Below are positions 1,021 through 60,464 of a DNA stretch of 64,000 bases, in pieces. The notes beneath the pieces are model-generated. The model was not told the DNA's origin. It saw nothing but the letters and a program-made list of their open reading frames with translations, and made no database searches. This DNA comes from a virus: positions 5,342 through 69,341 of IMG/VR virus record IMGVR_UViG_3300025289_000028; one strand, written 5' to 3'. The stretch's first letter is position 1. Each line of letters starts with the position of its first letter. Both the position numbers and the translations under genes were made by a program.

Positions 1021-1236
1021 ATGACCAGACAAGAAACAAATAGATTAATTTTAAAGCAAATTTTAGCTATGGTTGAAGGTGCTCCAGACTTAAGATTTCA
1101 ACAAATTTTAATCAATATGGGAATTAATCAAACACAATTAGTTGGAACTATGCCAAACGAAATAATGATGTGTAAGGATTTATATCACGAGGAAAGTATT
1201 AAAACGCTTGAAAGAATAAATAAGAAAGATGCTTAA
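1021..1236 (+). CDS. hypothetical protein (71 aa)
   Basis: ORF in packed array. Confidence 0.5.
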   Translation: MTRQETNRLILKQILAMVEGAPDLRFQQILINMGINQTQLVGTMPNEIMMCKDLYHEESIKTLERINKKDA

Positions 1237-1486
1237 AAGTAAGATATTCAATTTCTTTGCAGTTAAACTTGTAGAAGGTGCTCATACTCAATTTTATAAA
1301 GAAAGAGATGAACATAACAGAGAAATAAGTGAATTCATTGAACAGTTAGGAAAAGATGGAAATACTTTTATAAACATGAACTCAGTAGGTTATGGAAGAT
1401 TTGAAAGTGTTGACAGAATAAGAACTATAATAATTTACATAGAAAACCAGACAAGGAAAGTTCTTGTTGAAAAAATTAAATCATAA
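1229..1486 (+). CDS. hypothetical small protein, paralog family A; C-terminal ...TRKVLVEKIKS*
   Basis: Clear paralog of 1489..1719 (NTFINMNSVGYGR...R.RT.I.Y.EN.TRKV.VEK); carries the recurrent motif. Confidence 0.6.
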   Translation: MLKSKIFNFFAVKLVEGAHTQFYKERDEHNREISEFIEQLGKDGNTFINMNSVGYGRFESVDRIRTIIIYIENQTRKVLVEKIKS

Positions 1487-1488
1487 GA

Positions 1489-1719
1489 ATGGCTAAATGT
1501 AAAACGTTTTATTCGGATGATAATAGAACAAACTATGAAATGCATGATTTAGAAATAAAATCTTTTCTTGAAGAATTAGAAACAAATGGGCACACATTTA
1601 TAAATATCAACACAATTTCTTTTGGAAGAAATAATGGTTATGTTGATAGATTTAGAACCGAAATTACATACATGGAAAATCCAACAAGAAAAGTTATTGT
1701 TGAGAAATCAGAAGCATAA
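1489..1719 (+). CDS. hypothetical small protein, paralog family A; C-terminal ...TRKVIVEKSEA*
   Basis: Paralog of 1229..1486; starts 3 nt after the upstream stop. Confidence 0.6.
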   Translation: MAKCKTFYSDDNRTNYEMHDLEIKSFLEELETNGHTFININTISFGRNNGYVDRFRTEITYMENPTRKVIVEKSEA

Positions 1720-1721
1720 GA

Positions 1722-2525
1722 ATGGAAATAAATAAATGTTATAACGAAAAGGCTGAGGAATTTTTAGTAAAGGCTCCAGATAATTTTATTGACCTCACTG
1801 TTACATCACCACCCTACGACGACTTGAGAAATTATAAAGGTTTCACTCTTGATTTAGATTTTGTTATAAAAGAATTATACAGAGCAACAAAGAAAGGCGG
1901 AATTTGTGTTTGGGTTGTTGCTGACCAAGTAAAAAAGAACAGTGAAACCGGTACCTCATTCAGACAAGCTCTTAAATTTATTGACCATGGTTGGAAGTTA
2001 CATGATACAATGATTTACAAAAAACTCAATCCAACACCAAATGCCAGAGCCAGATACCAACAATGTTTTGAGTATATGTTCGTATTTTCAAAAGGAAAAC
2101 CAAAAACAACCAATATAGAACTACGAGAGCGAAGAAACAAATGTAACGACAAAAGAACTTTCAGGAAAAAAAAGTTTTCCAGGAACGCAAATGGAGACTT
2201 TAACACGAACGATTATCACTTCAAGGAAAGAGTGCCAAAAGAAAATATTTGGGAATACTATGTTGGTGGTGGTAACAGTTCTAAAGATAAAATAGCTTTT
2301 AAACATCCGGCAATTTTTCCGGAGGAGCTTGCAAAAGACCATATATTAAGCTGGACAAATGAAGGAGACTTGGTTTGTGATATCATGGCCGGTAGCGGTA
2401 CAACTTTTAAAATGGCAAGACTAAATAAGAGAAACTATATCGGATGTGAAATCTCAAAAGAATATTGCGATGATATCATAGATGAAAGAATGAAAAAATA
2501 TCCAGAAGAAATATTAATTAAATAA
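1722..2525 (+). CDS. DNA methyltransferase, beta-class amino-MTase (N4-cytosine or N6-adenine)
   Basis: Motif IV 'TSPPYDD' is near the N-terminus and the AdoMet motif I 'DIMAGSGTT' near the C-terminus. This IV-then-I order is typical of beta-class MTases. Homologous to the interrupted gene 55081..55863. Confidence 0.8.
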   Translation: MEINKCYNEKAEEFLVKAPDNFIDLTVTSPPYDDLRNYKGFTLDLDFVIKELYRATKKGGICVWVVADQVKKNSETGTSFRQALKFIDHGWKLHDTMIYKKLNPTPNARARYQQCFEYMFVFSKGKPKTTNIELRERRNKCNDKRTFRKKKFSRNANGDFNTNDYHFKERVPKENIWEYYVGGGNSSKDKIAFKHPAIFPEELAKDHILSWTNEGDLVCDIMAGSGTTFKMARLNKRNYIGCEISKEYCDDIIDERMKKYPEEILIK

Positions 2526-8445: not shown

Positions 8446-8988
8446 ATGATTGAGTATTTAAACATAATAAAGATAGAGCCTCCTAATTTAATTAACTTTC
8501 CACAGAAAAGAAGAGTGCTTGTTGAAAAATTTATTTATAAAGAATATCCTTTAAAAAAAGTTTTAGAAAATTACCGCAATTCGATAGTAGCTCCCGGTGA
8601 ATACGTATGGGTGATAGACGCTAATAGTCTTGTTATAGAAAGATATATAATTTCTTTAGTCCCAGAAATATTAGAAAATGGGAGTAAAATATTTTTTTTC
8701 GATAAAAAAGGGAAATTTCGTGAAATTCATACAATGATGCATGTTTTTTTAGATACAAATAATACATTAAATACTTTTCATTTATATGGAGGTCATTCGT
8801 CTGGTGATAAACTTATATGTTCTTCAGAAGAAGATGTTTTAATTTCATTAAAAAAATATATTCCATTACTAATAAAGAAAATACAAGAAAATTTATTTAG
8901 AGGAAATATGAGTATTGAAAAACAAGCAGGAAAAAAAACAAGAATAAAAGAACTCCAAAAATTTCAAAAATTTTTAGCTAAATCATGA
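8446..8988 (+). CDS. hypothetical protein (180 aa); N-terminal ...KRRVLVEK motif
   Basis: Starts the nucleotide after the upstream stop. Confidence 0.55.
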   Translation: MIEYLNIIKIEPPNLINFPQKRRVLVEKFIYKEYPLKKVLENYRNSIVAPGEYVWVIDANSLVIERYIISLVPEILENGSKIFFFDKKGKFREIHTMMHVFLDTNNTLNTFHLYGGHSSGDKLICSSEEDVLISLKKYIPLLIKKIQENLFRGNMSIEKQAGKKTRIKELQKFQKFLAKS

Positions 8989-9497
8989 ACTACCTTAAGT
9001 GTAAAGATTATTTTATTTTCAAGTTCAGATTTTATGCTGATAAAAGGATATTGGATAAATGGCATAGAGATGGTGGAGGAGTCCCAAAACAACATTGTGA
9101 TAGAGCTGTTGCGAGCTGTAATTTTTTATTGGCTTTAGTGAAAAAAATTACTGGCAAAAAACAGGAATATTGGTTTTCAGAATACTTATTTGAGCCATAC
9201 GATTGTATGATAGAAGAAATACAAGAAACTCATGGAATTTATAGGTTTTTGCTTTCGGATGGGTATTATACTTTTTTTATTCCAATACGTCATACTGAAA
9301 TTATTGAATGGATTAAACCGAAAATAAAATTCCCTCATAAAATAATCAAAAAAACAAGTGTTGGATTTATCAATCACAATGAAGATTGTTCTTTTCACAG
9401 AAGTTTGTCCGCACAAAGAACAAAAGACTTTAAACAAAAAATATTAATTGCAGAAAGCACAAGAAAGGTATTGTTCGAAAAATGTAATAATTGGTAA
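8985..9497 (+). CDS. hypothetical protein (170 aa); C-terminal ...TRKVLFEKCNNW*
   Basis: ATGA overlap with the upstream gene. Confidence 0.55.
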   Translation: MNYLKCKDYFIFKFRFYADKRILDKWHRDGGGVPKQHCDRAVASCNFLLALVKKITGKKQEYWFSEYLFEPYDCMIEEIQETHGIYRFLLSDGYYTFFIPIRHTEIIEWIKPKIKFPHKIIKKTSVGFINHNEDCSFHRSLSAQRTKDFKQKILIAESTRKVLFEKCNNW

Positions 9498-9824
9498 ATG
9501 TATAACATACTAAAAAACAAAGAAGTAAAAATAAGAAAGCCGAGAAAATGTTTTGGTTGTTTGGATATTGTGCCAATTGGAAGAATTATGACATATGTGG
9601 TAGGAGTTGAAGATGGAGTATTCGGAACTACTTATTGGTGTGATTTATGTGACGCTTATTTTCATTCATGTTCTGAATTCGCAGAAGATGGAATTTCAGA
9701 AGGTGAATTTAGGAACGAAATGAGTTATAATCAATTTAAAAAAGAGTATCTTTGCCAGGAAAGAAAAGTCTTATTTGAAAAAGATAATTTAAGATTAATC
9801 ATAAACAAAGTTCTCAATAAATAA
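9498..9824 (+). CDS. hypothetical Cys-rich protein (108 aa); ...ERKVLFEK motif
   Basis: CFGC...CDLCDAYFHSC cluster. Confidence 0.55.
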   Translation: MYNILKNKEVKIRKPRKCFGCLDIVPIGRIMTYVVGVEDGVFGTTYWCDLCDAYFHSCSEFAEDGISEGEFRNEMSYNQFKKEYLCQERKVLFEKDNLRLIINKVLNK

Positions 9825-10197: not shown

Positions 10198-10606
10198 ATG
10201 GCATTTCACTTTAGGAGATTTTGAATTTAAAAAAGCTACTTATCATCCTGCCGGCAAAAAATCATTTGAAGTGTGGTATAAAAACGATTTTATAGGGGAT
10301 TGTATAGTGCCATTTTATAGATCAAAAAATAACATTCAAAAGTTGGAAATTTTCTCAAAAGAAGATTCAGGAACTAAATATAGTGCATATGATTTTGCTA
10401 ATGGAGGAAAACAACCAATTGGTAATGTGTTTTGCATTGGATTAAGAAGCAATTTCCCAACCACAATAATTAAAGCAGAATTATTTGCTGATAAATCAGA
10501 CATGGTTTCAATTAGAAAAATATTATTTGAAAAATATCCAGAAAAGCTTAAATTTGTTACTCTTGATGTTATTTTGAGAGAGTTAAACCATGGCGAATTA
10601 TTTTGA
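10169..10606 (+). CDS. hypothetical protein, paralog family B; ...IRKILFEK motif
   Basis: Paralog of 10603..11022 (KW..GDF.FK.AT....G..S..V.+K++FIG). The exact start is uncertain. Confidence 0.5.
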   Translation: MTRRKRVKNKWHFTLGDFEFKKATYHPAGKKSFEVWYKNDFIGDCIVPFYRSKNNIQKLEIFSKEDSGTKYSAYDFANGGKQPIGNVFCIGLRSNFPTTIIKAELFADKSDMVSIRKILFEKYPEKLKFVTLDVILRELNHGELF

Positions 10607-11022
10607 GCAGTAAAATGAAAAGAACCAAAAATAGCAAACCAAAGAAAAAATGGTCAAAGCAATGTGGAGATTTTTCATTTAAAAATGCCACACAAAATAA
10701 AGAAGGTTCTATATCTGTTGATGTGTTTTTTAAAGATGAATTTATTGGTGTTATGTCATGCACAAATAGGAAATTTACAGATAAATACGGTTTAGGAATT
10801 TATGATTTTTCAGAACAAAGACGTTCCGGAACTGCTATTGGTTTTGTAGAATGTTCGGGAATAATACATGGACTTCCAAAATCAATATTAAAAGTAGAAT
10901 TAAAAAGGAACTCTATTTTATCTTTAGAAAGAAAAGTTTTAATAGAAAAATTTAAATTAATTGAAGAAATTGATTGGATGGAAACATTTAGCTTTAATAA
11001 TCTTAGATTATTACTTCGATGA
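10603..11022 (+). CDS. hypothetical protein, paralog family B; ...ERKVLIEK motif
   Basis: ATGA overlap with the upstream gene. Confidence 0.55.
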   Translation: MSSKMKRTKNSKPKKKWSKQCGDFSFKNATQNKEGSISVDVFFKDEFIGVMSCTNRKFTDKYGLGIYDFSEQRRSGTAIGFVECSGIIHGLPKSILKVELKRNSILSLERKVLIEKFKLIEEIDWMETFSFNNLRLLLR

Positions 11023-11094
11023 ACAACAGTAGATTATACCAATATCCAGCACTATTCAATGAACAACAGTAGATTATACCGATATCCAGCACTA
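11019..11094 (+). repeat. Tandem direct duplication: two 36-bp copies with 1 mismatch and a 4-bp spacer, covering the start codon and first 12 codons of gene 11059
   Basis: atgaacaacagtagattatacc[a/g]atatccagcacta occurs at 11019-11054 and again at 11059-11094. Copy 1 encodes MNNSRLYQYPALFNEQQ*. Confidence 0.85.
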
Positions 11095-11823
11095 AATGAA
11101 TTTAATAATACTCTTTCTATTCATCATGATGAATCCCATTCACACGCTAAATTTCATCCCGATTTTAGAAAACCAATCATTAATAAAGCTCAAGCAAGAA
11201 GCATAAGAAAAAAGACTGGCTGTAATTTCGTTATAACCGGAGATATATTTTATTATAAATTATATTGGGTAAATTTTTGTCATGAATATGGACTTGTTAA
11301 TCATGTTAATATTAAAGAACAAAACGGAATGGCAATAGTTAGAGACAACGAAGTTATATGGTATTCAATACCTGGTCAACCAGAAGGACTTGCTGAAAGA
11401 AAAGTACTTATAGAAAAAACAAGAACAAAATTTATACTTGAAGGTGTTCGGCCATATTTAAATTTCATTACAGAAAACAGAAAAATGACAAAAGAAGAAT
11501 TAAATAAGTACGCCGACCAAGAAGCATCTTGGTTACGATATTACGGCAATATTGACACAAGAACATCAGACCCATTCGATGATGCAAAGTTTTATGACCG
11601 CATAATCGGAATAGGATATGCAAAGAGAGTTTTTCCTCTTCCTTTTAGATGCGTTGCTGGATATGTTACAAGTAAAAAACCAGCATTAGAATCTTCCGTT
11701 GAGGAATTGGAATTTTCTTCCGGACCAAGGAGTGCAGAAAATAATATATATTCTGCATTAGAATATGTATTCGCAACAAATTTTGAAGGCTCTGAAAAAC
11801 TTAGAGATTTTATTCGCTCTTAA
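11059..11823 (+). CDS. hypothetical protein (254 aa); ...AERKVLIEK motif
   Basis: ORF in packed array. Confidence 0.55.
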   Translation: MNNSRLYRYPALNEFNNTLSIHHDESHSHAKFHPDFRKPIINKAQARSIRKKTGCNFVITGDIFYYKLYWVNFCHEYGLVNHVNIKEQNGMAIVRDNEVIWYSIPGQPEGLAERKVLIEKTRTKFILEGVRPYLNFITENRKMTKEELNKYADQEASWLRYYGNIDTRTSDPFDDAKFYDRIIGIGYAKRVFPLPFRCVAGYVTSKKPALESSVEELEFSSGPRSAENNIYSALEYVFATNFEGSEKLRDFIRS

Positions 11824-11850: not shown

Positions 11851-12333
11851 ATGAGCAAGCAAAAGAAATCATCCTTAAAAACAAAAAGAGTTTTATTTGA
11901 TACACAATACGATATGTGCGATATGATTTATAGAAAACTATCAGAATTGATGTTATCGGTAAATAAATTAGAAATAATAATAAAGCACGAAAAATTTGGT
12001 AATTTTAAATTACTTATAAATGAAAGTGAAAGTGAAAAAATTCAATTTTATACAATCACAGAAAAAAATATTCTCATTAAAAATATTGGTTATGTACCTT
12101 TAAATAACATATCTCTAGAACAATTAGAAGACCCATTTATATATTTTATATGCGGAGAAATTAAATTCATAAATTCAAGACCAGAAATTTACTCTGAATG
12201 GTTTGAACAAATTAAATGCACAATGCAAGAATTGTTGGATGAAGAAAAAAAATACGAAGAATTAAGAAGCAAAATAGAAGAACTTCCAATATTTTCACCA
12301 ACTCGAGAAGTATTAATAGAAAAAAATAATTAA
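11851..12333 (+). CDS. hypothetical protein (160 aa); C-terminal ...FSPTREVLIEKNN*
   Basis: ORF in packed array. Confidence 0.55.
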   Translation: MSKQKKSSLKTKRVLFDTQYDMCDMIYRKLSELMLSVNKLEIIIKHEKFGNFKLLINESESEKIQFYTITEKNILIKNIGYVPLNNISLEQLEDPFIYFICGEIKFINSRPEIYSEWFEQIKCTMQELLDEEKKYEELRSKIEELPIFSPTREVLIEKNN

Positions 12334-14877: not shown

Positions 14878-15189
14878 ATGCCACACAATAAAAAAATAAT
14901 AGATAAGTTTTTAAATGATTGGATTAACACTTCAACATTTGATTTATATTCAAAAAATTTACTCGATGATTTATCTAAATATGAAAAAGTAGAAGAAGAA
15001 AAACCGGAGGCGCTTACAAGAAAAGTATTAATTGAAAAAACAAGCAAACTCAATATAGGGGTGTGGCAATTTTTGAATGAACATTTAAGAAACACAATCA
15101 ACAATGATTCACTTTTTAGCTCACATTATATATTAAGAGCACTTAATATAACCCAAGAAGATGTAAATGATAACAATTTAGAACATTGA
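14878..15189 (+). CDS. hypothetical protein (103 aa); ...LTRKVLIEK motif
   Basis: ORF in packed array. Confidence 0.5.
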   Translation: MPHNKKIIDKFLNDWINTSTFDLYSKNLLDDLSKYEKVEEEKPEALTRKVLIEKTSKLNIGVWQFLNEHLRNTINNDSLFSSHYILRALNITQEDVNDNNLEH

Positions 15190-19541: not shown

Positions 19542-20018
19542 ATGGAATTTAGCAAAAAATATCGTCACATAGGAAATAGTTACGCAGGTGTGCCCAGACA
19601 TTGGAAACCAGTAGTAGAGAAACACTTGGTAAGAATAGAAAAAGTAATGTGGAAACAGTGGTGGATGCCGCGATTTATTATGAGAGCCATCCATTTTTTG
19701 GCCACCGGAGGCTCCGTTGTCCGTATTAAATTTTGGTGGGCATACAACCTAAGAAACAAACTCACAGGCAGTCAAATAATACAAGATATTAAAGAAAAAT
19801 ATGGCTCATTAAGAATTTATGGATACTTTGGTAAAGAAATTGATGATATAATTACAGAAGCAGTAAAAGAATGTGCTAACACTTGTATGGATTGTGGAAG
19901 CAATAATAATGTTGAGTATATAGATAATGGTTGGGTTTATGTATTGTGTGCAGAATGTAGAGATAGACCTGAGTTTTCACCAACAAGAGAAGTTTTAATA
20001 GAAAAAAATGGTAATTAA
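19542..20018 (+). CDS. hypothetical protein with C-terminal Zn-ribbon; C-terminal ...FSPTREVLIEKNGN*
   Basis: CMDCGS...CAECRD cluster. Confidence 0.55.
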   Translation: MEFSKKYRHIGNSYAGVPRHWKPVVEKHLVRIEKVMWKQWWMPRFIMRAIHFLATGGSVVRIKFWWAYNLRNKLTGSQIIQDIKEKYGSLRIYGYFGKEIDDIITEAVKECANTCMDCGSNNNVEYIDNGWVYVLCAECRDRPEFSPTREVLIEKNGN

Positions 20019-20786: not shown

Positions 20787-20909
20787 CAAGAGAAGAATTT
20801 GAAAAAGCTCAAGAAAAATTCAGAAATCAGTTTTTTGAATTTACTAAGATTGAGAGAATTGTATTAATCGAGAAGATTTAAACATTTTAACATGTTTTTC
20901 GTTTAAATA

Positions 20910-21591: not shown

Positions 21592-21882
21592 ATGCTTAAA
21601 TTAAGATGTATAAAAAACTATATCACATGCGGAACAGGTTTTTCAAAAACAGCTTTTGAAATAGGTACAAGCTATACAATACATTCAATTGAAGAATATA
21701 CTATTTCTATATTAAATAATAACGGTCAACCTTATATTTTCGCATTAGAATATGATCCAGAAGGTTTTTGTTGTTGGGTAGATGACTTCTTTGAATCAAA
21801 TAAACGCTTCGTTATTTTTGAGAAGAAATGTAGAACATCTAATTTAAAAAAGTTTATAAAATTATTCGATTTAAATGATTAA
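21592..21882 (+). CDS. hypothetical protein, paralog family C (1 of 3); ...NKRFVIFEK
   Basis: Three tandem paralogs share M(L/I)KL(R/E)CIK...NPANKRFVI(F/I)EK....FNFK. Confidence 0.6.
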   Translation: MLKLRCIKNYITCGTGFSKTAFEIGTSYTIHSIEEYTISILNNNGQPYIFALEYDPEGFCCWVDDFFESNKRFVIFEKKCRTSNLKKFIKLFDLND

Positions 21883-22144
21883 ATTAGAGTGTATAAAACG
21901 GCTTTATGAAGTAGATTATAAATCTTTTACATTGGGTAAAAATTATAAAATCACATATCAAGATGGACATTTTATTGAACTTTTAGATAATAGAGGAAGA
22001 GAAATAAGTTTTAGCAAAATTTCCGGCTCTTATTTTCATTATGTATTTAAATATTTTAATCCGAATCCAGCTAATAAAAGATTTGTTATTTTCGAAAAAA
22101 CAAGTGAACCATTTAATTTTAAATTAAAGCAACTAAATGATTAA
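21875..22144 (+). CDS. hypothetical protein, paralog family C (2 of 3)
   Basis: Tandem paralog. Confidence 0.6.
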   Translation: MIKLECIKRLYEVDYKSFTLGKNYKITYQDGHFIELLDNRGREISFSKISGSYFHYVFKYFNPNPANKRFVIFEKTSEPFNFKLKQLND

Positions 22145-22445
22145 ATTAAGATGTATAAAAACTCTTTACAAATCAACGTATAAAGGAAATGCTTTTACGA
22201 GAAATAAATTATATGAAATCAGGTCAGACAAAAATCATGATTTTATACACATCTTAGATAATCAAGGACGGTTTTTTGGTTTTGAAAAACCACAACTCCG
22301 ATTTACCAAACAATACTATAAACAAGCCGGAATGTATCGCATACAAGATTATTTTAGTCCAAATCCGGCAAATAAACGTTTTGTTATTATTGAAAAAATA
22401 AATGAACCATTTAATTTCAAAGAAAAAGATTATGAAAATAAATAG
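22137..22445 (+). CDS. hypothetical protein, paralog family C (3 of 3)
   Basis: Tandem paralog. Confidence 0.6.
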   Translation: MIKLRCIKTLYKSTYKGNAFTRNKLYEIRSDKNHDFIHILDNQGRFFGFEKPQLRFTKQYYKQAGMYRIQDYFSPNPANKRFVIIEKINEPFNFKEKDYENK

Positions 22446-22681: not shown

Positions 22682-23188
22682 ATGACCGAGCATTTAAATC
22701 AATATGTAATTAATCAACCTTATCATAGATTTGTCCTTTTCGAAAAGAGAAACAAAAGCGCTGAATTGTTTTTAGATATAGTAAATGACGCAGGATGGAC
22801 AGATGTTATTTATATGGACTATTATATGATGATTGCAATAAACGAAACAAGTAAAAAAATAATTTTTTTTATAATTTCCCCAAAAGATGAATCTAATTCC
22901 TCGTTTGTATTTCATAACTTTGGAGAAAAAAACAACAGTGACGCACTTAATGTAGCATCAATATTTGACTGTAATTATTCAGAAAAATCAAAAAATTTAA
23001 AAATTCCTGAGTTTATACATTGGTACCTTTCAGTTTTATCTATTTGTTTAAAATCAGTAGGTGAAGTGAAAATTTTAATGAAAAAATATAATAGTGGAAA
23101 TTCTAAAAATTTCGAAAAAGATTTTGATATTATCAAACGTTTTTTAAGTTCAGAATTCAAAAAGTTAGAACTATTAGCAAATGAATAA
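22682..23188 (+). CDS. hypothetical protein (168 aa); N-terminal ...YHRFVLFEK motif
   Basis: ORF in packed array. Confidence 0.5.
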   Translation: MTEHLNQYVINQPYHRFVLFEKRNKSAELFLDIVNDAGWTDVIYMDYYMMIAINETSKKIIFFIISPKDESNSSFVFHNFGEKNNSDALNVASIFDCNYSEKSKNLKIPEFIHWYLSVLSICLKSVGEVKILMKKYNSGNSKNFEKDFDIIKRFLSSEFKKLELLANE

Positions 23189-23507
23189 GAATAGCGAAAA
23201 TTTATACACCAATTTAAATATTGATATACCAACTTTACATGGAGTCTTAATTGAAAAATTCAAAGAGCCAGTTGTTAGTTATTGGGCAATTCGTTGGAAT
23301 GATAGGAATGATGAATTACATAGTTTTAACGGCTTCCCTTCTTGTATAGAAAGATCAATATTTAATAGAGTATGTTATTTAAGATGGCACAAACATGGTA
23401 AGGAAATAAAATCATTAACCGTACAAATTATACCAAGATCAGAAATAATAGCAGAAAAAATTAAAGCTCGAGATTTTCAAGAAAGAGCCAAAAAAAGAGA
23501 GTTATAA
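23181..23507 (+). CDS. hypothetical protein (108 aa); degenerate motif ...LHGVLIEK
   Basis: ORF. Confidence 0.5.
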   Translation: MNKNSENLYTNLNIDIPTLHGVLIEKFKEPVVSYWAIRWNDRNDELHSFNGFPSCIERSIFNRVCYLRWHKHGKEIKSLTVQIIPRSEIIAEKIKARDFQERAKKREL

Positions 23508-25742: not shown

Positions 25743-26021
25743 ATGGACATAGCATGCGGTGATGTAGTTACTATTAAAGATGAAATATTCAGTGAATCTG
25801 GAAGAATAATTTTTCATAAAGGAACAAAAGTACAAATAAGCGAAGTTATTAAAAAAGAAGCATTTTGGGGGAAAATGTCCGGCGTATATTATCCCGAAGA
25901 AATAACAGGACTAAAAATTATTGGAATTTCTGGTGAATGGTCATTAGAAACCTTTAAGGAAACTTCAAGGAATCCAATAATAACAAGAGAAGTTTTAGTT
26001 GAAAAATTCAAATTTTATTAA
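25743..26021 (+). CDS. hypothetical protein (92 aa); C-terminal ...ITREVLVEKFKFY*
   Basis: ORF. Confidence 0.5.
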   Translation: MDIACGDVVTIKDEIFSESGRIIFHKGTKVQISEVIKKEAFWGKMSGVYYPEEITGLKIIGISGEWSLETFKETSRNPIITREVLVEKFKFY

Positions 26022-26023: not shown

Positions 26024-26542
26024 ATGGATTCAGAAACTGTAAAAAGATTAATTTTAGAAAAATTGTTTAATGAATTTATTCCTAAATTAATTGGTTATTA
26101 TAGACTTTTATCACCTGAAAAAGATCAATGGAATCCAAATTTTTTTCTTCTTAAAGAAAATATACGTTTGAATACCGATGGATATGAAATTTATTTTTAT
26201 GTTGCAATAAATAAGGATGGATTTTTTGAACGTTGTACTGTTTCCAAAATAAGAGTAAGGGCGTCCCTTGGTCACATAATGTTAGAACATTTACAAAGAG
26301 TAGAACCAGAAACATTAGATTTTAATTTTGACAACAAAAATACAGCAATAAATGAGCTTTGTAGAATACTTAATAATTCTTATGTTTTAAAACTTGGAAT
26401 GTGTGCTTTACAGGAGATTGAAAATCATGAAGTACCAGAAAATTGTAGCGTTGGAGCTATAAAGAAAATTTTAGGTCTTAGTCCAAATATGGATTTAAAT
26501 AATATAGAAACAAGAAAAGTATTATTAGAAAAAATAAAATAA
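26024..26542 (+). CDS. hypothetical protein (172 aa); C-terminal ...ETRKVLLEKIK*
   Basis: ORF. Confidence 0.55.
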   Translation: MDSETVKRLILEKLFNEFIPKLIGYYRLLSPEKDQWNPNFFLLKENIRLNTDGYEIYFYVAINKDGFFERCTVSKIRVRASLGHIMLEHLQRVEPETLDFNFDNKNTAINELCRILNNSYVLKLGMCALQEIENHEVPENCSVGAIKKILGLSPNMDLNNIETRKVLLEKIK

Positions 26543-27081
26543 TGAGCAAGAAAATAACGTTATTCCAAGAAATGTTCATGGTATTAAGAGAGAACGTCAT
26601 ACCAAGCATAATGTCAAGCTTACAAGAGATGGGAATGCTATATTCACATATTCATATAAATCCACAGCAATCACTTTGTTTTTTTAATCATTTAAGCTTG
26701 GAATTTCCATTTCAAAATTTACAAACAATAAAAGATGATAAAGGGAACAATATTCAAATTTTAATATTCAATATAAGGTCAGATGGACAAATATCTATTT
26801 GTGAAAATTTAAACTTTGGATTAGCTGGCACAGTAGAGCTAATTAATGAAGTTGTTCTTTTTGAAGATTTTAATAAAATGTTTGACGGTGTTGTATATGA
26901 AAATGCTTTTTTATTTTATCTTTCAAGAGAGCTTACTAATAAAGCATATCAATCTCAAGAGGAAGTGAAAGTAATAAAAACTCTTTTAGGTGAAATGTAC
27001 AAAATAACTCCAATCATAACAAGAGAAGTTTTATTTGAGAAAAAAATCAAAATCGTAAAAAAATCAAAAACTAAAAAATAA
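26542..27081 (+). CDS. hypothetical protein (179 aa); C-terminal ...ITREVLFEKKIKIVKKSKTKK*
   Basis: ORF. Confidence 0.55.
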   Translation: MSKKITLFQEMFMVLRENVIPSIMSSLQEMGMLYSHIHINPQQSLCFFNHLSLEFPFQNLQTIKDDKGNNIQILIFNIRSDGQISICENLNFGLAGTVELINEVVLFEDFNKMFDGVVYENAFLFYLSRELTNKAYQSQEEVKVIKTLLGEMYKITPIITREVLFEKKIKIVKKSKTKK

Positions 27082-35580: not shown

Positions 35581-35826
35581 ATGGGAATAGCAAATTTTAA
35601 ATGTGTTTATTGTGAGAAAAGTGTTATGTGGTTTTCTGAAACATTAAATAATCGTAGTGTTTTTATTTTCAGAACACCGATAGAAACCAAAGATGCTTGT
35701 TATAAATGTGCTTATATGGCTGAAAATACAAGAACTGTTATGATGGAGAAAGTAATTGAAGTTAAAGAAAGAATAAATTCTATTAGGAATAAGATAATTA
35801 GAGATAAAAAGATGTTAGACATTTAG
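35581..35826 (+). CDS. hypothetical Cys-rich protein (81 aa); variant motif ...TRTVMMEK
   Basis: ORF. Confidence 0.45.
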   Translation: MGIANFKCVYCEKSVMWFSETLNNRSVFIFRTPIETKDACYKCAYMAENTRTVMMEKVIEVKERINSIRNKIIRDKKMLDI

Positions 35827-35833: not shown

Positions 35834-36037
35834 ATGGAAGACGGTGGTTTTGATATTAGAACAAGAGTGGTGTTAATTGAAAAGCGTGATAATCCTTTTC
35901 ATTATTCAAAATTAGAAGAAGTAAAAAATACTTGGAAAAACGGTGAACATCCAGAAGAGTGTAGAGGCCAATGTAATGTAAAAATGAGTTTTATCGTTGA
36001 ATCTTGCTCTTGTTGTGGATGGATAGGCGATTATTAA
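35834..36037 (+). CDS. hypothetical Cys-rich protein (67 aa); N-terminal ...RTRVVLIEK motif
   Basis: ORF. Confidence 0.45.
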   Translation: MEDGGFDIRTRVVLIEKRDNPFHYSKLEEVKNTWKNGEHPEECRGQCNVKMSFIVESCSCCGWIGDY

Positions 36038-36906: not shown

Positions 36907-37181
36907 TGAAAAAAATTAATCACGATGAAATTTCAGTACTAAAACGTATAGTACTTATAGAAAAAAGTTATTATTTTAAAAAAGGTGATACCGTTAGAAT
37001 AAATACTAAAATTATAGAGCCTTATTATTATTGGCGTGAATTTAAAGAAAGTTTAGGGACTGTATTTTCCTGTGATAAAGAATGGAACGAAGTAACAATA
37101 TTATGGTTTACTACAAATGATAGAGTAGGATTACCGTCATTATGGGATTCTTTTAATTTAATTAGAGTTGATAAGGATTGA
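36906..37181 (+). CDS. hypothetical protein (91 aa); N-terminal ...LKRIVLIEK motif
   Basis: Last gene of the plus-strand array. Confidence 0.5.
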   Translation: MKKINHDEISVLKRIVLIEKSYYFKKGDTVRINTKIIEPYYYWREFKESLGTVFSCDKEWNEVTILWFTTNDRVGLPSLWDSFNLIRVDKD

Positions 37182-41839: not shown

Positions 41840-42213
41840 GTAATCTGTGTAAATGATTGAATCTCAGAGTATTCAAGTAGGTACAAGCTCTCAAAAACTG
41901 ACCAAAAGTTGGTATATTTTATATAAAACGTCTTGTTTTTTTCATATTTTTCCATTAAAATCTCATTATTTCCATTGATATTTTTAATGTAAAATATGTA
42001 ATCTTTGTACTCTGAGTTTGTATATAATTCACACCCATCAATTTTCGAAATAAAAAATTCTTTCATTTCTGTTTCCTTGGCTTTTTGAGAAATGTATTTC
42101 TCAAACAACACTTTTCTCGTCAAAAATGAACACAAGTCCACCTTTATCCCAAGGTTTGTCCATGGTGTATCCTTAACTTTTTCTTGCTTTTCTTTCAAAA
42201 TAGCATTTGACAT
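41767..42213 (-). CDS. hypothetical protein (148 aa); ...LTRKVLFEK motif. The last ~24 codons are encoded by CRISPR repeat 4 and spacer 3
   Basis: Minus-strand ORF in an operon with 42216..42845 and 42876..43787. The 3' end reads into the array, so the true C-terminus is uncertain. Confidence 0.5.
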   Translation of the reverse strand: MSNAILKEKQEKVKDTPWTNLGIKVDLCSFLTRKVLFEKYISQKAKETEMKEFFISKIDGCELYTNSEYKDYIFYIKNINGNNEILMEKYEKNKTFYIKYTNFWSVFESLYLLEYSEIQSFTQITLEDGLKSNGYKTSIVAEEFGYQP

Positions 42214-44095: not shown

Positions 44096-44490
44096 CCCCT
44101 TTCAAAAAATGGAATTAATATTTCTGTTGAGTTGCTCATTGTCACGAAGTCAAATTCAACATGTCGAAAAATAAAAAAATAAATTCCTTCCATTTCATCA
44201 AGCTCTGTTCTTACCCAATACTTTTTCTCAATTAATGTGACAAATCTATTATTACTTCTTATCTTTTCAGTTAAAACAATCCTATTTTTAAAAAAAACAC
44301 ATAGAAAACTATCAATTTGTGTTTCGGAAACAATTACATTACAGTCATTATCTTGTATAATTGTTGAAATAAAGCTTTCATTGATTTTAACAATTCCAAA
44401 AATAGATTCTTCATTTATATGAATATTATTGAATTCTGATGACGCTCCCTCATATCTATCACATTTTGAAATCGACTTATAGGGTTTCAT
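44092..44490 (-). CDS. hypothetical protein (132 aa)
   Basis: Minus-strand ORF. Confidence 0.5.
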   Translation of the reverse strand: MKPYKSISKCDRYEGASSEFNNIHINEESIFGIVKINESFISTIIQDNDCNVIVSETQIDSFLCVFFKNRIVLTEKIRSNNRFVTLIEKKYWVRTELDEMEGIYFFIFRHVEFDFVTMSNSTEILIPFFERG

Positions 44491-52832: not shown

Positions 52833-53987
52833 TTACTCAATACAGTTGAATTCTTTCTCTAAAATTTCATTTATATTTTTCAAATTTAAATATGAAATTC
52901 TAATAAGTTTTATATTGTTATTTAAACAATATTTATTTTTTATGTTATCAGTTCTTTGTATATCCAAAAAATTTTTTTCTCCTCCAAATTTTTTGACTGA
53001 TTCAAAATGCTGTCTCCCATCAAATTCTATACAAGTATTGTATTTTGGTAAATAAAAATCAAATGGTAATTTATTTGATATTCCTATGCAATCATTAAAT
53101 TTATGTTGATGTATAAATTCGATGTTATTCTTTTTTAAAAATTCAATTATACCTTTTTCTCCCTTTGATATTTTTGAAAAATTACATTTTTTACATCCAT
53201 ATCCATTCAAATGTGAGCTTGGAGTTATTTGAAAATCTCCATGTAATGGACAAATTACTATTACCTTAGTTTTGTTTTGAACGTAGTTAACTTTTGAATA
53301 ATCGTATTTTGGTTCACATGTTTTTTCATTTATGTGTATAATTTTCGATTTTTCAATAAAATATTCAGAAGTATTAGCTCTTTTTAAGGAACTTTCTTCA
53401 AATCCGCAAAAAGGACATTGGTGTCCAGCTAAATGTTTATCTGGTGATTGCTCAAAAACACCATGTTTCTTACAAATTATCTTAACTTTAATTATAGAAT
53501 TAACATATTCAACTAACTCATAATTATATGTATATCCATAAATAATTATAGATTTTTCAATAAACTCTATCGTGTTTCTTAATGCGGTTCCGCCACACTT
53601 ACCACATCCATGCCCACCCAAATGACTTGCTGGAATTTGTTCAAAAACTCCATGATTATTACATATTATTTTAACTTTTGTATTATTGTTAAAATATTCT
53701 ACTAATGAATAATCATATATATTACTATGAACTTTGTTAGACTTTTCAATAAATTCTTCGGTTGTTAATTTTTTGAGTCCAGAACATTCAACACATCCAC
53801 AACCAGATAAATGATCATTTGGCGTTTGCTCAAAAACACCATGTTCTTTACAAATTATTTTAATCTTAGTTTTGCTATTTTTATATTCAACTAAACTGTA
53901 ATCATATTTTGATTCATTAGTTATTCTGTTTACATGTATAATTTTAGCTCTTTCAATAAACTCTTCTGTTGTTAATTTTTTTGACAT
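52833..53987 (-). CDS. Homing-endonuclease-like protein with tandem Zn-ribbon modules and a C-terminal Vsr-like PD-(D/E)xK domain (paralog of 37158..38285)
   Basis: Same repeat architecture. C-terminal 'LPFDFYLPKYNTCIEFDGRQHF...FGGEKNF...YCLNNNIKLIRI'. Confidence 0.65.
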   Translation of the reverse strand: MSKKLTTEEFIERAKIIHVNRITNESKYDYSLVEYKNSKTKIKIICKEHGVFEQTPNDHLSGCGCVECSGLKKLTTEEFIEKSNKVHSNIYDYSLVEYFNNNTKVKIICNNHGVFEQIPASHLGGHGCGKCGGTALRNTIEFIEKSIIIYGYTYNYELVEYVNSIIKVKIICKKHGVFEQSPDKHLAGHQCPFCGFEESSLKRANTSEYFIEKSKIIHINEKTCEPKYDYSKVNYVQNKTKVIVICPLHGDFQITPSSHLNGYGCKKCNFSKISKGEKGIIEFLKKNNIEFIHQHKFNDCIGISNKLPFDFYLPKYNTCIEFDGRQHFESVKKFGGEKNFLDIQRTDNIKNKYCLNNNIKLIRISYLNLKNINEILEKEFNCIE

Positions 53988-54853: not shown

Positions 54854-55081
54854 TTACTTATATTTCTCAATTAAAACTACTCTTTCAAATGTGTTTAAAC
54901 AAATAGGACATCGTTTACAAAATGTTACATTTCCAGAAACACCATAATCAACACTTTCAATTGTGGAAACTTTTAAAACATTTGGATGTTTCCTACAATA
55001 AGGCTCGGAATGAAATTCTTTAAAAAACGATGCAAACATTGAATTATGTTCCTTTTTTAATTGTTCTAATAATTCAGACAT
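54854..55081 (-). CDS. small Zn-ribbon protein (75 aa); C-terminal ...FERVVLIEKYK*
   Basis: CRKH...CKRCPICLN cluster. Confidence 0.5.
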   Translation of the reverse strand: MSELLEQLKKEHNSMFASFFKEFHSEPYCRKHPNVLKVSTIESVDYGVSGNVTFCKRCPICLNTFERVVLIEKYK

Positions 55082-55863: not shown

Positions 55864-56078
55864 TTTATTTCTTTCAATATCAAATGGTCAGTCCCTTCAA
55901 AACAAGCAACACCAGATTCAAATCTTGATGTGGATATTTTCTTTGTTCGGTTGGAATAAAACTTCCAATCGCACTTACTAAATTTTAAAACATGACAACC
56001 ATTTTCAGTTTTAACAAACTGAGCTACCAGCTTTTTACCATCTGGAACTTCGAATAGATAGGATTTACCTTTTTTCAT
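55860..56078 (-). CDS. hypothetical protein (72 aa)
   Basis: Minus-strand ORF. Confidence 0.45.
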   Translation of the reverse strand: MKKGKSYLFEVPDGKKLVAQFVKTENGCHVLKFSKCDWKFYSNRTKKISTSRFESGVACFEGTDHLILKEIK

Positions 56079-56644
56079 TGTTCTATTTTTAAAATGAATT
56101 TCAAATTATTATTATAAGCTAACAAACAAAATATTATTGTTCCTATATAAAAAAACAATCCCATTATTGCTCTTTCTCCATCACTCATCTTTGTTATATC
56201 TATACTCATTGTACAAAATATAATAATTAAACTAAAACCGAATACTGTAAAAAAATAAAATACAAAAATGGATAATAACTTTTTAAACCAGTTTATAGTT
56301 AAAGATTTTATTTCAATTTCATTATAACGTTTATTTTCAGTATCATACCGCATAGAAACTTGATAACTGCAGTAAAAATAAGTAAGAGCGGTTCCTATAA
56401 GAGAAATTATAAGAAACATAAATCTGGAAGGCGTGCTCCAAAATATTAAATTATAATTTAAAGCAAAAAATGCTGTAGTTATGTATGCAAAAAACATACT
56501 TATAATAGAAGATATAAAAATAGCAATTTTATTTTTTGAGTTCATTTTTTCGAAATTATGTTTAATATCATCTTCAGTATTAATTCCTGTTTTTTCAAAC
56601 AGTACTTTTCTCTCAAGTTTATATGGAAAATGTAGAGTTATCAT
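56075..56644 (-). CDS. multi-pass membrane protein (189 aa); N-terminal ...LERKVLFEK motif
   Basis: Several hydrophobic segments. Confidence 0.5.
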   Translation of the reverse strand: MITLHFPYKLERKVLFEKTGINTEDDIKHNFEKMNSKNKIAIFISSIISMFFAYITTAFFALNYNLIFWSTPSRFMFLIISLIGTALTYFYCSYQVSMRYDTENKRYNEIEIKSLTINWFKKLLSIFVFYFFTVFGFSLIIIFCTMSIDITKMSDGERAIMGLFFYIGTIIFCLLAYNNNLKFILKIEQ

Positions 56645-57785: not shown

Positions 57786-58193
57786 TTATTTTTTAGAATT
57801 GGAAAATTCTTCTAAAATAGCAGTGATATTTTTTCTTCCTGCAGTACTTTGAGAATGCACTTTAAATGCCGGGAGATTAAGATTGTTTGTTTTACAAAAT
57901 TCTATTATCCACTGAGCTGAATGAAATCCTGTAGGAATAGTTGTTAAGGAGTAGTCAAATTCTTTATACCCAGTCTTTTCTCCGATAGTATAGTGTTCAT
58001 CATCGAGATCATGATCAAAAGATATAATTGCTGGCCATTTTCCTTCTGAAAAAAAATTTGTTATAGTTTTAACAAATTCATCATGAGAGCGAACTACAAC
58101 CCATTTCAATTTAAGATAGTCAGTATCTTTTAAAATATTAAAAGCGTCATATGGATGCCGGAAATCATCGAGATAAATATGTAAACTATCCAT
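57786..58193 (-). CDS. hypothetical protein (135 aa)
   Basis: Minus-strand ORF. Confidence 0.5.
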   Translation of the reverse strand: MDSLHIYLDDFRHPYDAFNILKDTDYLKLKWVVVRSHDEFVKTITNFFSEGKWPAIISFDHDLDDEHYTIGEKTGYKEFDYSLTTIPTGFHSAQWIIEFCKTNNLNLPAFKVHSQSTAGRKNITAILEEFSNSKK

Positions 58194-58524
58194 GATTATA
58201 TTTTTCTACCAAAACTTTTCTAACTGCATCTCTATACAAAAAATCAATAATATCTTCTTTAAAGGCTGGTCTTTTTTTAATAGAATCGTATAAATCAGAT
58301 ATTAATTTTTTTTCTCTAAAAACTTCTTCTGCTTTTTCTTTTATTAATTCTTTTATTTGCAAAGAATTTATGTCAAAATCAAGATTAAAGGAATTGATTG
58401 TATTGATAATAGAATCTCCAGTAATTTCAATATAATCTTCTAACCTTAATCCTTTGTAATCTTTCATATGATTAAATATTTCCAAACGCCAAATAACCTT
58501 CCAACTTAGTTTTGGCATCTTCAT
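58186..58524 (-). CDS. hypothetical protein (112 aa); C-terminal ...VRKVLVEKYNHG*
   Basis: Minus-strand ORF. Confidence 0.5.
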   Translation of the reverse strand: MKMPKLSWKVIWRLEIFNHMKDYKGLRLEDYIEITGDSIINTINSFNLDFDINSLQIKELIKEKAEEVFREKKLISDLYDSIKKRPAFKEDIIDFLYRDAVRKVLVEKYNHG

Positions 58525-59428
58525 AAGACATTAATGCTATTTTTTGTTCACCGCTTACTTTGGTAATTGATAAGTAATTACAAATCGTCAAAAATATTTT
58601 CACAACACTATCATCAAATCTTTTTTCATCAACCATAGTAACAAAATCCTTATAAGAAGGAAGTTCTTCACCATTTTGAGCCGTTCCTTCCTTATAGAGA
58701 ACTTTTAATAATTCAGAGTAATTTATCCAATCTTTTTCAAGTTTTTCTTTTTTGGTTTTAACATATTCATTAAAACCATCTTCTTGTGTGTTTTCTATTG
58801 GTTTTATTGGTTCTGAAGGCTCTTTTATTGATTTTACAGGTATCTCTTCTGTTTTAATGAATTTTACCGGTTCTTCGATTGGTTTTACAGGTTCCTCTTC
58901 TGTTTTAATAGATTTTGCTGGTTCTTCGATTTTGTTTTCTAATTTTTCTTCCTTATTTGAACTTGTAATATATTTCATAAGCAAATCAAGAAAACACAAA
59001 GATATAATCGGCAATATAGCTCCGGACAATATTGCAATTATCCTTTTCACAAATATTATATCACTTGCATCATATACGCTAAACCCAAACAATTCAGTAA
59101 AATTCTTAATTAAATTAGAATCAGTAATCATTTTTGTTGTAGTGGTATCGTAGGAATAATAAGTATTCCCCATCATTTGAAACGTTGTTAAAAGGATAAA
59201 AATAGCCCAAACTGTACCTTTATTTATTTTATCCATGGCAACTATCCCAGCCAATGAGGAAAGTGCCCCAAGCTCAAAAACAACAGCAAGAACTATGGAA
59301 ATTGCTTTGTAATTACTAAGCTCAAAAAAACTAACAACATGGAGTGCACTTACCAAACTAACACTAAATGGTACAATCATGAAAGCGATTACTATCCACC
59401 ATGAAGCTTTTTGTTTATTATCTGACAT
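58472..59428 (-). CDS. membrane protein with Pro/Glu/Lys-rich tandem repeats (EEPVKPIEEPVKFIKTEEIPVKSIKEPSEPIKPIE)
   Basis: N-terminal TM helices. The repeats correspond to the DNA tandem repeat at ~58795-58935. Confidence 0.55.
   Translation of the reverse strand: MSDNKQKASWWIVIAFMIVPFSVSLVSALHVVSFFELSNYKAISIVLAVVFELGALSSLAGIVAMDKINKGTVWAIFILLTTFQMMGNTYYSYDTTTTKMITDSNLIKNFTELFGFSVYDASDIIFVKRIIAILSGAILPIISLCFLDLLMKYITSSNKEEKLENKIEEPAKSIKTEEEPVKPIEEPVKFIKTEEIPVKSIKEPSEPIKPIENTQEDGFNEYVKTKKEKLEKDWINYSELLKVLYKEGTAQNGEELPSYKDFVTMVDEKRFDDSVVKIFLTICNYLSITKVSGEQKIALMSYEDAKTKLEGYLAFGNI
58795..58935. repeat. Coding tandem repeat, ~48-51-bp units x ~2.5
   Basis: gattttacaggtatctcttctgttttaatgaattttaccggttcttc / gattggttttacaggttcctcttctgttttaatagattttgctggttcttc. 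Confidence 0.6.
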
Positions 59429-59765
59429 TTTTTAGTTTTTCTTGAAGTTCTTTTATTTGAATGTTGTATTTGTTTATCACATCATCCGGACGTTCAGATG
59501 TCCTAACTATGGCGTTATTAGTGTAAACTACCTCTCTGGCTATTTCTATTGCATTAATCTTTAAAAGAATATCCATCTTCTCAGAAGAAATTTTTAATGA
59601 CAGAATTGAATCAGTCATTATTATTGCTTTCTCCAGTTTATCAATTCTTCGTCCATTTCTTTCGTTGACTGATTTCGTCCCGCAAGTATTTAAGAATGTC
59701 ATAAATCCAAAGGATAGAAGCATTAAAATACCATATTTGTTTAAAAAATCTAATAGTTTTTTCAT
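59418..59765 (-). CDS. hypothetical protein with N-terminal signal/TM (115 aa)
   Basis: Minus-strand ORF. Confidence 0.5.
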   Translation of the reverse strand: MKKLLDFLNKYGILMLLSFGFMTFLNTCGTKSVNERNGRRIDKLEKAIIMTDSILSLKISSEKMDILLKINAIEIAREVVYTNNAIVRTSERPDDVINKYNIQIKELQEKLKNVR

Positions 59766-59789
59766 AATTGTAAATATATCAATAAAAGT

Positions 59790-60464
59790 TTATAATGTCA
59801 ACATTGCCCTAATTGGCCAGTCAACATATTTCTCATAATTTCTTAATCCAATTAATATAGCGTGGGCATAATTTTTCTTTGAAAATGGGTATTTTATGTA
59901 TTCAGGTGAATCATCTTTGTTTTTTTGAAAAACCATATCTCCATTTTTACTTATACTACATGGTAATTCTGTATTTAAACAATAAGTTCTTCTATATGCT
60001 CGTCCTTTATTATACCAAACAATACCATCTGAACTAATAAGACCCGGCATATCATTAAAACTGTGTAATTCTCCTCTTTTGTTTAACCAATGAAATTCTA
60101 TTCCCATAATATTAGTTAAAAAATGAGATTGAACTATAACTTTATTAAACTTAAAATTTTTACGATATGGCTCTCCATTATTATGCCATTCCACATTTAT
60201 CCAAACGCTTGAATTAAAAGAAATTTTAGATGGCATATCATTAAAACTATGAAGGTTTCCGTTTGAATTATACCAACACATTTCGATGTAATTAATAGTA
60301 TAATATAATGTACCTTCTGGGACAGATACATTTGGCTTTCGCCACTTTTCTACAATGACAGAGCGCTCAATAGGAATTTTTAGATCTCTAAATCTGTCCA
60401 AAGCTTCTTTTATTAAGGCTTGTTCTAATAATAATTTTTCCTGTATTTCTGTTAAGATTTTCAT
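59790..60464 (-). CDS. MORN-repeat (YwqK-like) protein; N-terminal ...ERSVIVEK motif
   Basis: Repeated 'W.N.NG.LHSFNDMP' and 'WYNKGRAYR' units. Confidence 0.55.
   Translation of the reverse strand: MKILTEIQEKLLLEQALIKEALDRFRDLKIPIERSVIVEKWRKPNVSVPEGTLYYTINYIEMCWYNSNGNLHSFNDMPSKISFNSSVWINVEWHNNGEPYRKNFKFNKVIVQSHFLTNIMGIEFHWLNKRGELHSFNDMPGLISSDGIVWYNKGRAYRRTYCLNTELPCSISKNGDMVFQKNKDDSPEYIKYPFSKKNYAHAILIGLRNYEKYVDWPIRAMLTL

Follow-up and report, generated by a model that had tools for sequence, protein, structure and literature searches.

We analysed a 64,000-nt stretch of viral DNA (hereafter, the window; positions 5,342 to 69,341 of the IMG/VR record IMGVR_UViG_3300025289_000028), in which many small and otherwise unrelated predicted proteins carry the same eight-residue peptide, x-R-x-V-L-[IFVLM]-E-K. 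The window has a G+C content of 28.8% and encodes about 125 tightly packed genes. Among these we identified a type IA topoisomerase, a PcfJ-like protein, an SPFH protein, Dam and N4/N6 methylases, a radical-SAM protein, DnaJ, ClpP, and homing endonucleases of the HNH, GIY-YIG, and LAGLIDADG types. Since the topoisomerase, ClpP, and the first open reading frame (ORF) of the window are encoded identically on the NCBI contig CACVIJ010000001.1 (assembly GCA_902731165.1, 503,412 bp), the window is part of an uncultivated huge-phage genome, corresponding to ~365-429 kb of that contig. Identical copies of these three were found as well on JGI and ENA metagenome contigs, and a megablast search of the window against GenBank revealed no phage with DNA-level similarity.

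Scanning the window in six frames for the exact pattern R.VL[IFVLM]EK yielded 20 copies, and allowing one departure added nine variants, for a total of 29 (Table 1). All 29 reside in the sense frame of a coding sequence; none was detected in the other five frames or in intergenic DNA, and the carriers constitute 22% of the window ORFs. An earlier, sequence-only reading of the window had listed 28 carriers, each with the motif in the sense orientation of its gene and one reaching it through a frameshift. Every one of these ORFs indeed holds the motif or a one-off variant, and our scan added ORF 44092-44490. Nineteen of the exact copies are inside called genes, and the remaining one (20852-20875) is the copy reached by a frameshift only. 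There, a shift of one base at a T7A6 run adds ~35 residues to the upstream ORF, which then ends in ...ERIVLIEKI; the run could be a site of programmed slippage, producing tagged and untagged forms, or an assembly error. Along the carriers, the distance from the end of the motif to the C-terminus is 1-4 residues for ten of the window copies and 12-24 residues for eight; nine others start at residue 10-47, and two are internal.

Table 1. Copies of the motif in the window. Coordinates are those of the motif itself, based on the six-frame scan and the ORF calls; aa, amino acids.
Motif	Coordinates	Strand	Carrier ORF	Place in carrier	Remarks
TRKVLVEK	1451..1474	+	1229-1486 (85 aa)	3 aa before C-terminus	kept in homologues P0003-P0008; C-terminal helix in AlphaFold2 (AF2) model
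TRKVIVEK (L to I variant)	1684..1707	+	1489-1719 (76 aa)	3 aa before C-terminus	paralogue of 1229
KRRVLVEK	8506..8529	+	8446-8988 (180 aa)	residues 21-28	
TRKVLFEK	9459..9482	+	8985-9497 (170 aa)	4 aa before C-terminus	
ERKVLFEK	9759..9782	+	9498-9824 (108 aa)	residues 88-95	directly beyond PHROG 16244 domain (residues 5-82)
IRKILFEK (V to I variant)	10511..10534	+	10169-10606 (145 aa)	23 aa before C-terminus	
ERKVLIEK	10927..10950	+	10615-11022 (135 aa)	23 aa before C-terminus	paralogue of 10169
ERKVLIEK	11395..11418	+	11059-11823 (254 aa)	residues 113-120	internal; two modules fused
TREVLIEK	12301..12324	+	11851-12333 (160 aa)	2 aa before C-terminus	L006 orthologue ends ...TREVIIEKN
TRKVLIEK	15016..15039	+	14878-15189 (103 aa)	residues 47-54	
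TREVLIEK	19983..20006	+	19542-20018 (158 aa)	3 aa before C-terminus	
ERIVLIEK	20852..20875	+	20406-20786, by frameshift only	1 aa before stop	shift at T7A6 run 20767-20779
KRFVIFEK (variant)	21802..21825	+	21592-21882 (96 aa)	18 aa before C-terminus	
KRFVIFEK (variant)	22076..22099	+	21875-22144 (89 aa)	14 aa before C-terminus	
KRFVIIEK (variant)	22374..22397	+	22137-22445 (102 aa)	15 aa before C-terminus	
HRFVLFEK	22724..22747	+	22682-23188 (168 aa)	residues 15-22	
LHGVLIEK (R to H variant)	23235..23258	+	23181-23507 (108 aa)	residues 19-26	
TREVLVEK	25983..26006	+	25743-26021 (92 aa)	4 aa before C-terminus	
TRKVLLEK	26510..26533	+	26024-26542 (172 aa)	2 aa before C-terminus	
TREVLFEK	27019..27042	+	26542-27081 (179 aa)	12 aa before C-terminus	
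TRTVMMEK (weak variant)	35728..35751	+	35581-35826 (81 aa)	24 aa before C-terminus	least certain member
TRVVLIEK	35861..35884	+	35834-36037 (67 aa)	residues 10-17	
KRIVLIEK	36942..36965	+	36906-37181 (91 aa)	residues 13-20	
TRKVLFEK	42097..42120	-	41767-42213 (148 aa)	residues 32-39	L129 paralogues have motif at residue 9
NRIVLTEK (variant)	44263..44286	-	44092-44490 (132 aa)	residues 69-76	internal, weak; not on the earlier list
ERVVLIEK	54863..54886	-	54854-55081 (75 aa)	2 aa before C-terminus	
ERKVLFEK	56591..56614	-	56075-56644 (189 aa)	residues 11-18	predicted four-helix membrane protein
VRKVLVEK	58201..58224	-	58186-58524 (112 aa)	4 aa before C-terminus	
ERSVIVEK (variant)	60345..60368	-	59790-60464 (224 aa)	residues 33-40	paralogue of 23181

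Amino-acid composition predicts 0.008 exact copies in the 20,667-residue proteome of the window, corresponding to a ~2400-fold enrichment. The sequence-only reading had suggested a comparison with shuffled proteomes; in 2000 within-protein shuffles, we obtained a mean of 0.009 copies and a maximum of one, against the 20 observed. VLIEK is also the 5-mer found in the most proteins of the window proteome. As a control, we used 80 loci of other large phages (1.21 Mb in total, GC 27-39%), namely the best matches to the ClpC-like ATPase discussed below. With a looser regular expression, the 64-kb window contained 27 matches and the entire control only four, a ~130-fold enrichment. The motif was absent from 77 of the 80 loci; one locus from a relative of the same clade (L143, of a 518-kb contig) had two matches, and the remaining 79 had two single matches in total. 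Together, the shuffles and this AT-rich phage control rule out chance or composition as the source of the motif.

The motif matches no described motif that could be found, as the sequence-only reading had also suspected. A literature search for the motif strings returned no paper that contains them, and a motif profile run against the whole PDB (177,635 sequences) matched two unrelated families, which we read as chance, and no peptide complex. Searching a collection of 5.8 billion proteins with a full-length alignment gave only nine matches, because its E-values are scaled to the entire database. Twin-arginine signals, ribbon-helix-helix strands, CsrA-like N-termini, clamp-binding motifs, and SUMO-interaction-like motifs were considered and dropped, as their position or spacing did not fit.

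Pattern scans of IMG/VR recovered related contigs that are rich in the motif, including a contig of 518 kb (IMGVR_UViG_3300014205_000170), another of 212 kb (3300025319_000005), and several shorter ones. The related uncultivated phage genomes with the motif number at least three to five. Synteny links the 518-kb contig to the window at 10.6-16.2 kb, where the encoded proteins are 32-62% identical and orthologues keep the motif. We pooled the window with fifteen motif-rich loci of these contigs, obtaining 103 unique copies in 424 ORFs. The logo of the pooled copies reads T(60%)-R-[K/E/x]-V(96%)-L(78%)/I-[F/I/V/T]-E-K-[Y/F]. Its E and K are fixed by the search pattern, and we therefore checked them by a profile search for near-misses: the R was replaceable by K, N, H, S, or P, and the E-K pair was almost never lost. 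Carriers are typically small. In the pooled loci, the motif is found on about one-third of the ORFs of 60-200 aa, an upper estimate because the loci were picked for having the motif, compared with two of the 35 ORFs of at least 300 aa. Its density along the genome varies: the 10 kb flanking the window on either side hold zero copies and two weak variants, respectively, and one related locus, L129, holds 20 copies within 14.8 kb, in arrays of small paralogues. A family tagged at the N-terminus, encoded at 41540-42213 (-) of the window and at 1901-5894 of L129, ends in a variable number of ~20-residue repeats (LEDGLKSNGYKT in the window and LETHVKLEGYTP in L129), and short adjoining ORFs are made of these repeats alone.

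Selection acts on the peptide and not on the underlying nucleic acid, in agreement with the free variation at synonymous positions noted by the sequence-only reading. Across the 103 copies, codon use at R (all six codons, AGR and CGN), L (all six), E, and K follows the background (chi-square p 0.48-0.89), and that at V deviates marginally (p 0.04).

The pooled copies are bimodally distributed: 42 of the 103 lie within 35 residues of the N-terminus, 42 within 25 residues of the C-terminus, and 19 are internal, placing 84 copies (~80%) close to an end (up to 35 aa). In the C-terminal class, the most frequent number of residues after the Lys is 2-4, and no protein ends exactly at the Lys; in the N-terminal class, the peak is at 6-8 residues before the Arg. 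The motif is also external to conserved domains. In ORF 9498, it falls just outside the stretch matching the PHROG 16244 profile (87 positions). Similarly, an exhaustive search with a 154-aa carrier that resembles the T4 prohead protease gp21 yielded 45 representatives. In 21 of these, or about half, an N-terminal leader, the motif, and a linker of 8 aa precede the conserved LLTDF start, and ~12 others start 5-7 aa ahead of LLTDF, with no extension. One of the internal copies is explained by gene fusion. The two halves of the 254-aa product of ORF 11059 are adjacent, slightly overlapping genes in the 518-kb relative (L006 537-1263), with the motif 21 residues short of the end of the first and with the start of the second aligned to Met143. 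The fusion or fission between 11059-11823 and L006 537-1263 lies exactly after the tag and its tail.

The carriers have little else in common. A BLAST comparison among the window carriers detected five small paralogue groups ({1229,1489}, {10169,10615}, {11851,19542}, {21592,21875,22137}, and {23181,59790}), with the others remaining singletons, and Pfam and PHROG scans revealed no family common to them. In the related contigs, the motif is found on a LAGLIDADG endonuclease and an SNF2 helicase, both at the C-terminus, and internally in a DnaB-like ATPase. Carriers did not differ from non-carriers in isoelectric point, charge, hydropathy, or Cys content, and a depletion of membrane proteins among carriers was not significant. 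In two families, the motif columns are the best conserved (0.93 vs 0.72 in the 1229 family, and 0.85 vs 0.61 in the Gp23-N family described below). In the AF2 model of the 1229 family, based on a shallow alignment, the motif lies in a C-terminal helix with a pLDDT of ~76-80. These results bear out the earlier suggestion of a terminal tag on unrelated proteins. The motif is well supported as a portable peptide tag, or short linear motif, on the ends of many unrelated small proteins in one clade of huge phages. Its portability is evident from its place outside conserved domains, from homologues with and without it, from orthologues of 30-50% identity that keep it, and from its presence at the ends of modules where genes fuse or split.

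As the reader of the tag, the T4-type head-assembly machinery of the phage is the most likely candidate, one that we put forward tentatively; the tag would then be a functional analogue of the T4 capsid-targeting sequence (CTS). In this scheme, the tag would dock its carrier to the scaffolding core of the prohead, and a gp21-type prohead protease would cut after the invariant Glu (V-[L/I]-x-E / K). The cut would free N-terminally tagged cargo and dismantle assembly proteins with multiple tags, and the carriers would be internal or ejection proteins of small size and in very large numbers. We rank capsid targeting with processing first because of the L/I-x-E core of the motif, the T4-type head genes of the related contigs, and the multi-tag proteins derived from head proteins.

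Regarding the core, the position two residues before the Glu is L in 78% and I in 22% of the exact copies, and the residue between them varies (F/I/V/T). T4-type prohead proteases all cut after Glu, with ITE and LTE as the T4 sites and L/I-x-E as the gp21 rule (PMC5694885). The constrained Val and Leu/Ile, the variable residue, and the fixed Glu and Lys fit a putative prohead-protease site.

Regarding the head genes, a large terminase of T4 type and a gp20 portal protein are encoded on two motif-bearing contigs, L128 and L119. The nearest GenBank portals belong to T4-like phages of Flavobacterium and Microcystis. The motif also occurs in a small ORF that follows the portal gene at a short distance downstream. 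The portal gene of L119 (8706-11204 (-)) holds an intein (CLALDT...HN|S), which is not present in its L128 orthologue.

The multi-tag proteins form a short Gp23-N family of 105-329 aa (P0010-P0039 and the ORFs L009 439-1251 (-), L106 9946-10896 (+), and L124 2875-3450 (+)), which passes the Pfam Gp23 threshold only across the first 50-70 profile positions; one member also passes that of Portal_T4. These proteins are strings of peptides, namely the N-terminal region of gp23, its VQPM region, two peptides of the gp20 portal, the peptide G-[IV]-S-S-R-G, and an FtsA-like amphipathic helix, which vary in order and number and are joined by two to three copies of the motif. G-[IV]-S-S-R-G, which we take to be the catalytic-serine motif of T4 gp21, matches the annotated prohead protease of phage immuto (GISSRGTGS). 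The two portal peptides flank the intein site of the L119 portal. In the AF2 model of one family member, both motif copies are in coil, with pLDDT below 50. No GenBank phage was found with a short Gp23-N protein. A 208-aa ORF of L119 similarly consists of gp23(305-351), the motif, and gp23(470-533), and L128 encodes the second piece by itself, in an ORF starting with the motif. Adjacent same-frame ORFs in L106 and L009 raised the option of stop-codon recoding, which we rejected, as the stops are TAA, doubled in L009. Finally, the gp21-like family (L002 6199-6663 (-), P0130-P0174; 116-225 aa) has its Ser motif replaced by IRATG and retains GELxHP in some members only. By their sequences, these look like non-catalytic paralogues of the prohead protease.

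Several observations weigh against the head-assembly reading. The sequence-only reading had already invoked the T4-type protease rule, and its fit to L/I-x-E stands, with circumstantial backing from the portal, the terminase, and the carriers built of gp23, gp20, and gp21 pieces. Half of the copies, however, are C-terminal; in 20 cases, only 1-5 residues follow the Lys, and cleavage there would achieve little. Known prohead-protease substrates are almost all cut N-terminally (PMC10052503). The proportion of carriers in the window is far above any known set of head proteins, and the tagged proteins include unlikely virion cargo, such as the membrane protein 56075 and, in relatives, the LAGLIDADG endonuclease and SNF2 helicase. 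The window carriers share their gene run with DnaJ, ClpP, and methylases rather than with structural genes, and the AF2 model of the 1229 family suggests, at moderate confidence, a helix and not an extended site. The nearest GenBank records by portal (Flavobacterium phage immuto and LR756508.1), which are T4-like relatives, have head genes and zero copies of the motif in 83 kb. A profile search for Gp23-N gave short forms only in the clade, and full-length proteins elsewhere lacked the motif. From a gp21-like ORF, the indexed search returned the query only and the exhaustive search the non-catalytic family only. These searches did not retrieve a catalytic prohead protease, a scaffold, or a full-length capsid protein belonging to the clade.

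The tag is in kind closest to the T4 CTS, from which it is set apart by its sequence, its specificity, its placement at either end and in linkers, and a scale that differs by one to two orders of magnitude. The internal proteins of T-even phages are diverse small defence proteins with only the CTS in common (PMC3012670), and here, too, a short peptide is the only similarity among diverse small accessory proteins of a phage clade in which T4-type head genes occur. The tag ends in [L/I]-x-Glu as the gp21 rule demands, its N-terminal copies follow a leader about as long as the 10-aa CTS, and T4 Alt is likewise processed at both its N and C ends (PMC5694885). In contrast, the tag is far more specific: seven of its positions are constrained, among them Arg at P6, Val at P4, and Lys at P1'. 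It does not occupy the extreme N-terminus directly after the initiator Met, half of its copies are C-terminal, its carriers are outside head-gene clusters and are predicted to number hundreds instead of ~5-10, and its packaging and cleavage are putative. The prohead-protease motifs of giant phages (S/A/G-x-E for phiKZ gp175 and A-x-E for SPN3US gp245) offer a second comparison. There, too, the protease cuts behind a Glu and takes its specificity from the residue two positions before it, many head and ejection proteins undergo processing, propeptides hold multiple sites, and diverged, non-catalytic protease paralogues parallel the gp21-like family found here (PMC5694885, PMC10052503). However, these motifs comprise three residues, on 8-19 substrates, and nearly always in N-terminal propeptides, whereas ours spans eight residues and is as often C-terminal.

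A docking motif for another hub, with no cleavage involved, ranks second and is a doubtful but substantial alternative to the head-assembly reading. The hub might be a chaperone, a polymerase, or a membrane or compartment scaffold or condensate, of phage or host, to which the tag would recruit its carriers. All the tag-like properties (terminal, external to domains, and present or absent among homologues) apply equally to such a motif, and membrane-protein, nuclease, and helicase carriers are readily accommodated. The short amphipathic helix with a Thr N-cap modelled in the 1229 family and the disordered linkers of the Gp23-N family are both consistent with docking, although the tag is thus a helix in one AF2 model and coil in another. 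A chaperone, DnaJ, is encoded by the phage itself. A precedent exists in the encapsulation peptides of microcompartments and the cargo peptides of encapsulins, short modules at the N- or C-terminus of unrelated cargo, attached through a linker of low conservation; those of microcompartments form short helices and occur on targeted homologues only (PMC4594438), just as the tag is present or absent among homologues. However, those peptides span ~17 aa and conserve only an amphipathic pattern, whereas the tag is conserved residue by residue. In addition, the scans of the window proteins, with Pfam among them and 84 kb of the 503-kb contig accessible, detected no shell or encapsulin family, and no candidate partner was found. 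The strict E-K, the variable residue before the E, and the tolerated loss of R fit a protease subsite better than the hydrophobic face of a helix.

We consider it unlikely that the tag is a degradation or adaptor signal for a phage ClpC-ClpP pair, serving the timed turnover of many small accessory proteins. The sequence-only reading had raised a degron for ClpP and DnaJ, and part of this idea gained support. The phage encodes both a cognate unfoldase and a peptidase: a ClpA/ClpC-like double-AAA+ protein of 676 aa is encoded immediately beyond the end of the window (L142 6863-8893), beside ClpP (62687-63376) and DnaJ (60468-61601). It lacks the N-domain and has the VGF ClpP-docking loop. Degrons of AAA+ proteases, such as ssrA with its adaptor SspB, the N- and C-motifs of ClpX, and the ClpC signals, are short and sit at accessible N- or C-termini, which matches the bimodal motif positions. 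The other part of the idea did not hold. ClpC-like homologues are common in large phages without the motif, and the tag therefore does not follow the unfoldase across genomes: among the 80 best ClpC-like loci of our control, only that of the 518-kb clade relative has more than one match, and the 10 kb around the window phage's own ClpC hold none. Multiple copies within internal Gp23-N linkers are not what a degron needs, and marking a quarter of the proteome for degradation would come at a high cost. To our knowledge, the tag also bears no sequence resemblance to the known degron classes of AAA+ proteases, the ClpX, ClpA, and ClpC signals included. Homologues of the ATPase (~50% identity) were found on hundreds of large viral contigs, and the DnaJ is full-length.

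Far less probable is a structural element inherited by common descent, either within one very diverged superfamily or as a recombined terminal segment, with no common reader. Real paralogy does exist, in the five BLAST groups of the window and the large arrays of L129; the spacing between motif and domain is constant in the gp21-like family, and the modelled helix could pack on the sheet of the 1229 fold. Nevertheless, the motif is N-terminal in some families and C-terminal in others, with no constant place within a single fold, it is found outside conserved domains, and it marks unrelated folds (LAGLIDADG, SNF2, gp21-like, Gp23 pieces, and PHROG 16244). The flanks diverge while the 8-mer stays fixed, and no profile joins the carriers. 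A single hidden superfamily thus finds no support in BLAST, Pfam, or PHROG. A nucleic-acid signal that is incidentally translated (a promoter, an RNA-binding site, or a recombination site) is effectively refuted: copies do lie near gene boundaries, and their DNA consensus, AGA AAA GTN YTN NTN GAA AAA, is A-rich, but free third positions at background codon use and the strict restriction to the gene's frame rule out a DNA or RNA site, the distance from motif to boundary is variable, and no conservation independent of frame was found. The same codon analysis and frame restriction rule out reading ...NTT GAA AAA as a -35-like TTGAAA.

Taken across the proteome, the tag might possibly serve as an address, with one eight-residue peptide at either end of well over 100 different small proteins per genome directing them to a single destination. 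Two options fit: the capsid, loaded en masse with diverse effectors that would be co-injected, or a processing network specific to the phage and to the sequence. The tag also forms the joint between modules of mosaic proteins built from fragments of head proteins. Such scale and two-ended use have no described counterpart in any bacterial virus. Most genes of huge phages are small ORFs without recognisable function, and the tag would assign between a quarter and a third of these to one functional class. It would also provide an experimental handle, as any protein could be tagged or untagged. If capsid targeting is the true function, the protein arsenal injected by these phages would far exceed that of any known phage, and the tag could serve to package foreign proteins in large capsids, a use already made of the T4 CTS. 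If it is instead a degron or a docking motif, it would define a new regulatory hub.

The window and its surroundings are dense in selfish elements. These include two paralogous HNH endonucleases (37158-38285 and 52833-53987 (-)), one GIY-YIG (16563-17648 (+)), and one LAGLIDADG enzyme (61594-62520 (-)), and an IS605-type TnpB is encoded directly upstream of the window (L223 4286-5497). The tag is found on the L033 homologue of the LAGLIDADG enzyme and not on the window copy. Two large neighbouring paralogous ORFs of 802 and 565 aa (48282-50690 and 50692-52389 (+)) have no family match, the sole exception being a weak match of the second to sigma-70 region 4. The host may belong to the phylum Bacteroidota, judging solely by the sigma genes in L119 and L128, which look like the RpoD-like sigma factors of that phylum. 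Lastly, the sequence TCGTTTAAW is a candidate promoter element. It is located directly 5' of four plus-strand gene starts that follow intergenic gaps (17678-17686, 20899-20907, 24390-24398, and 32820-32828), and four of its seven window copies fall within the ~1.7 kb of total intergenic DNA.

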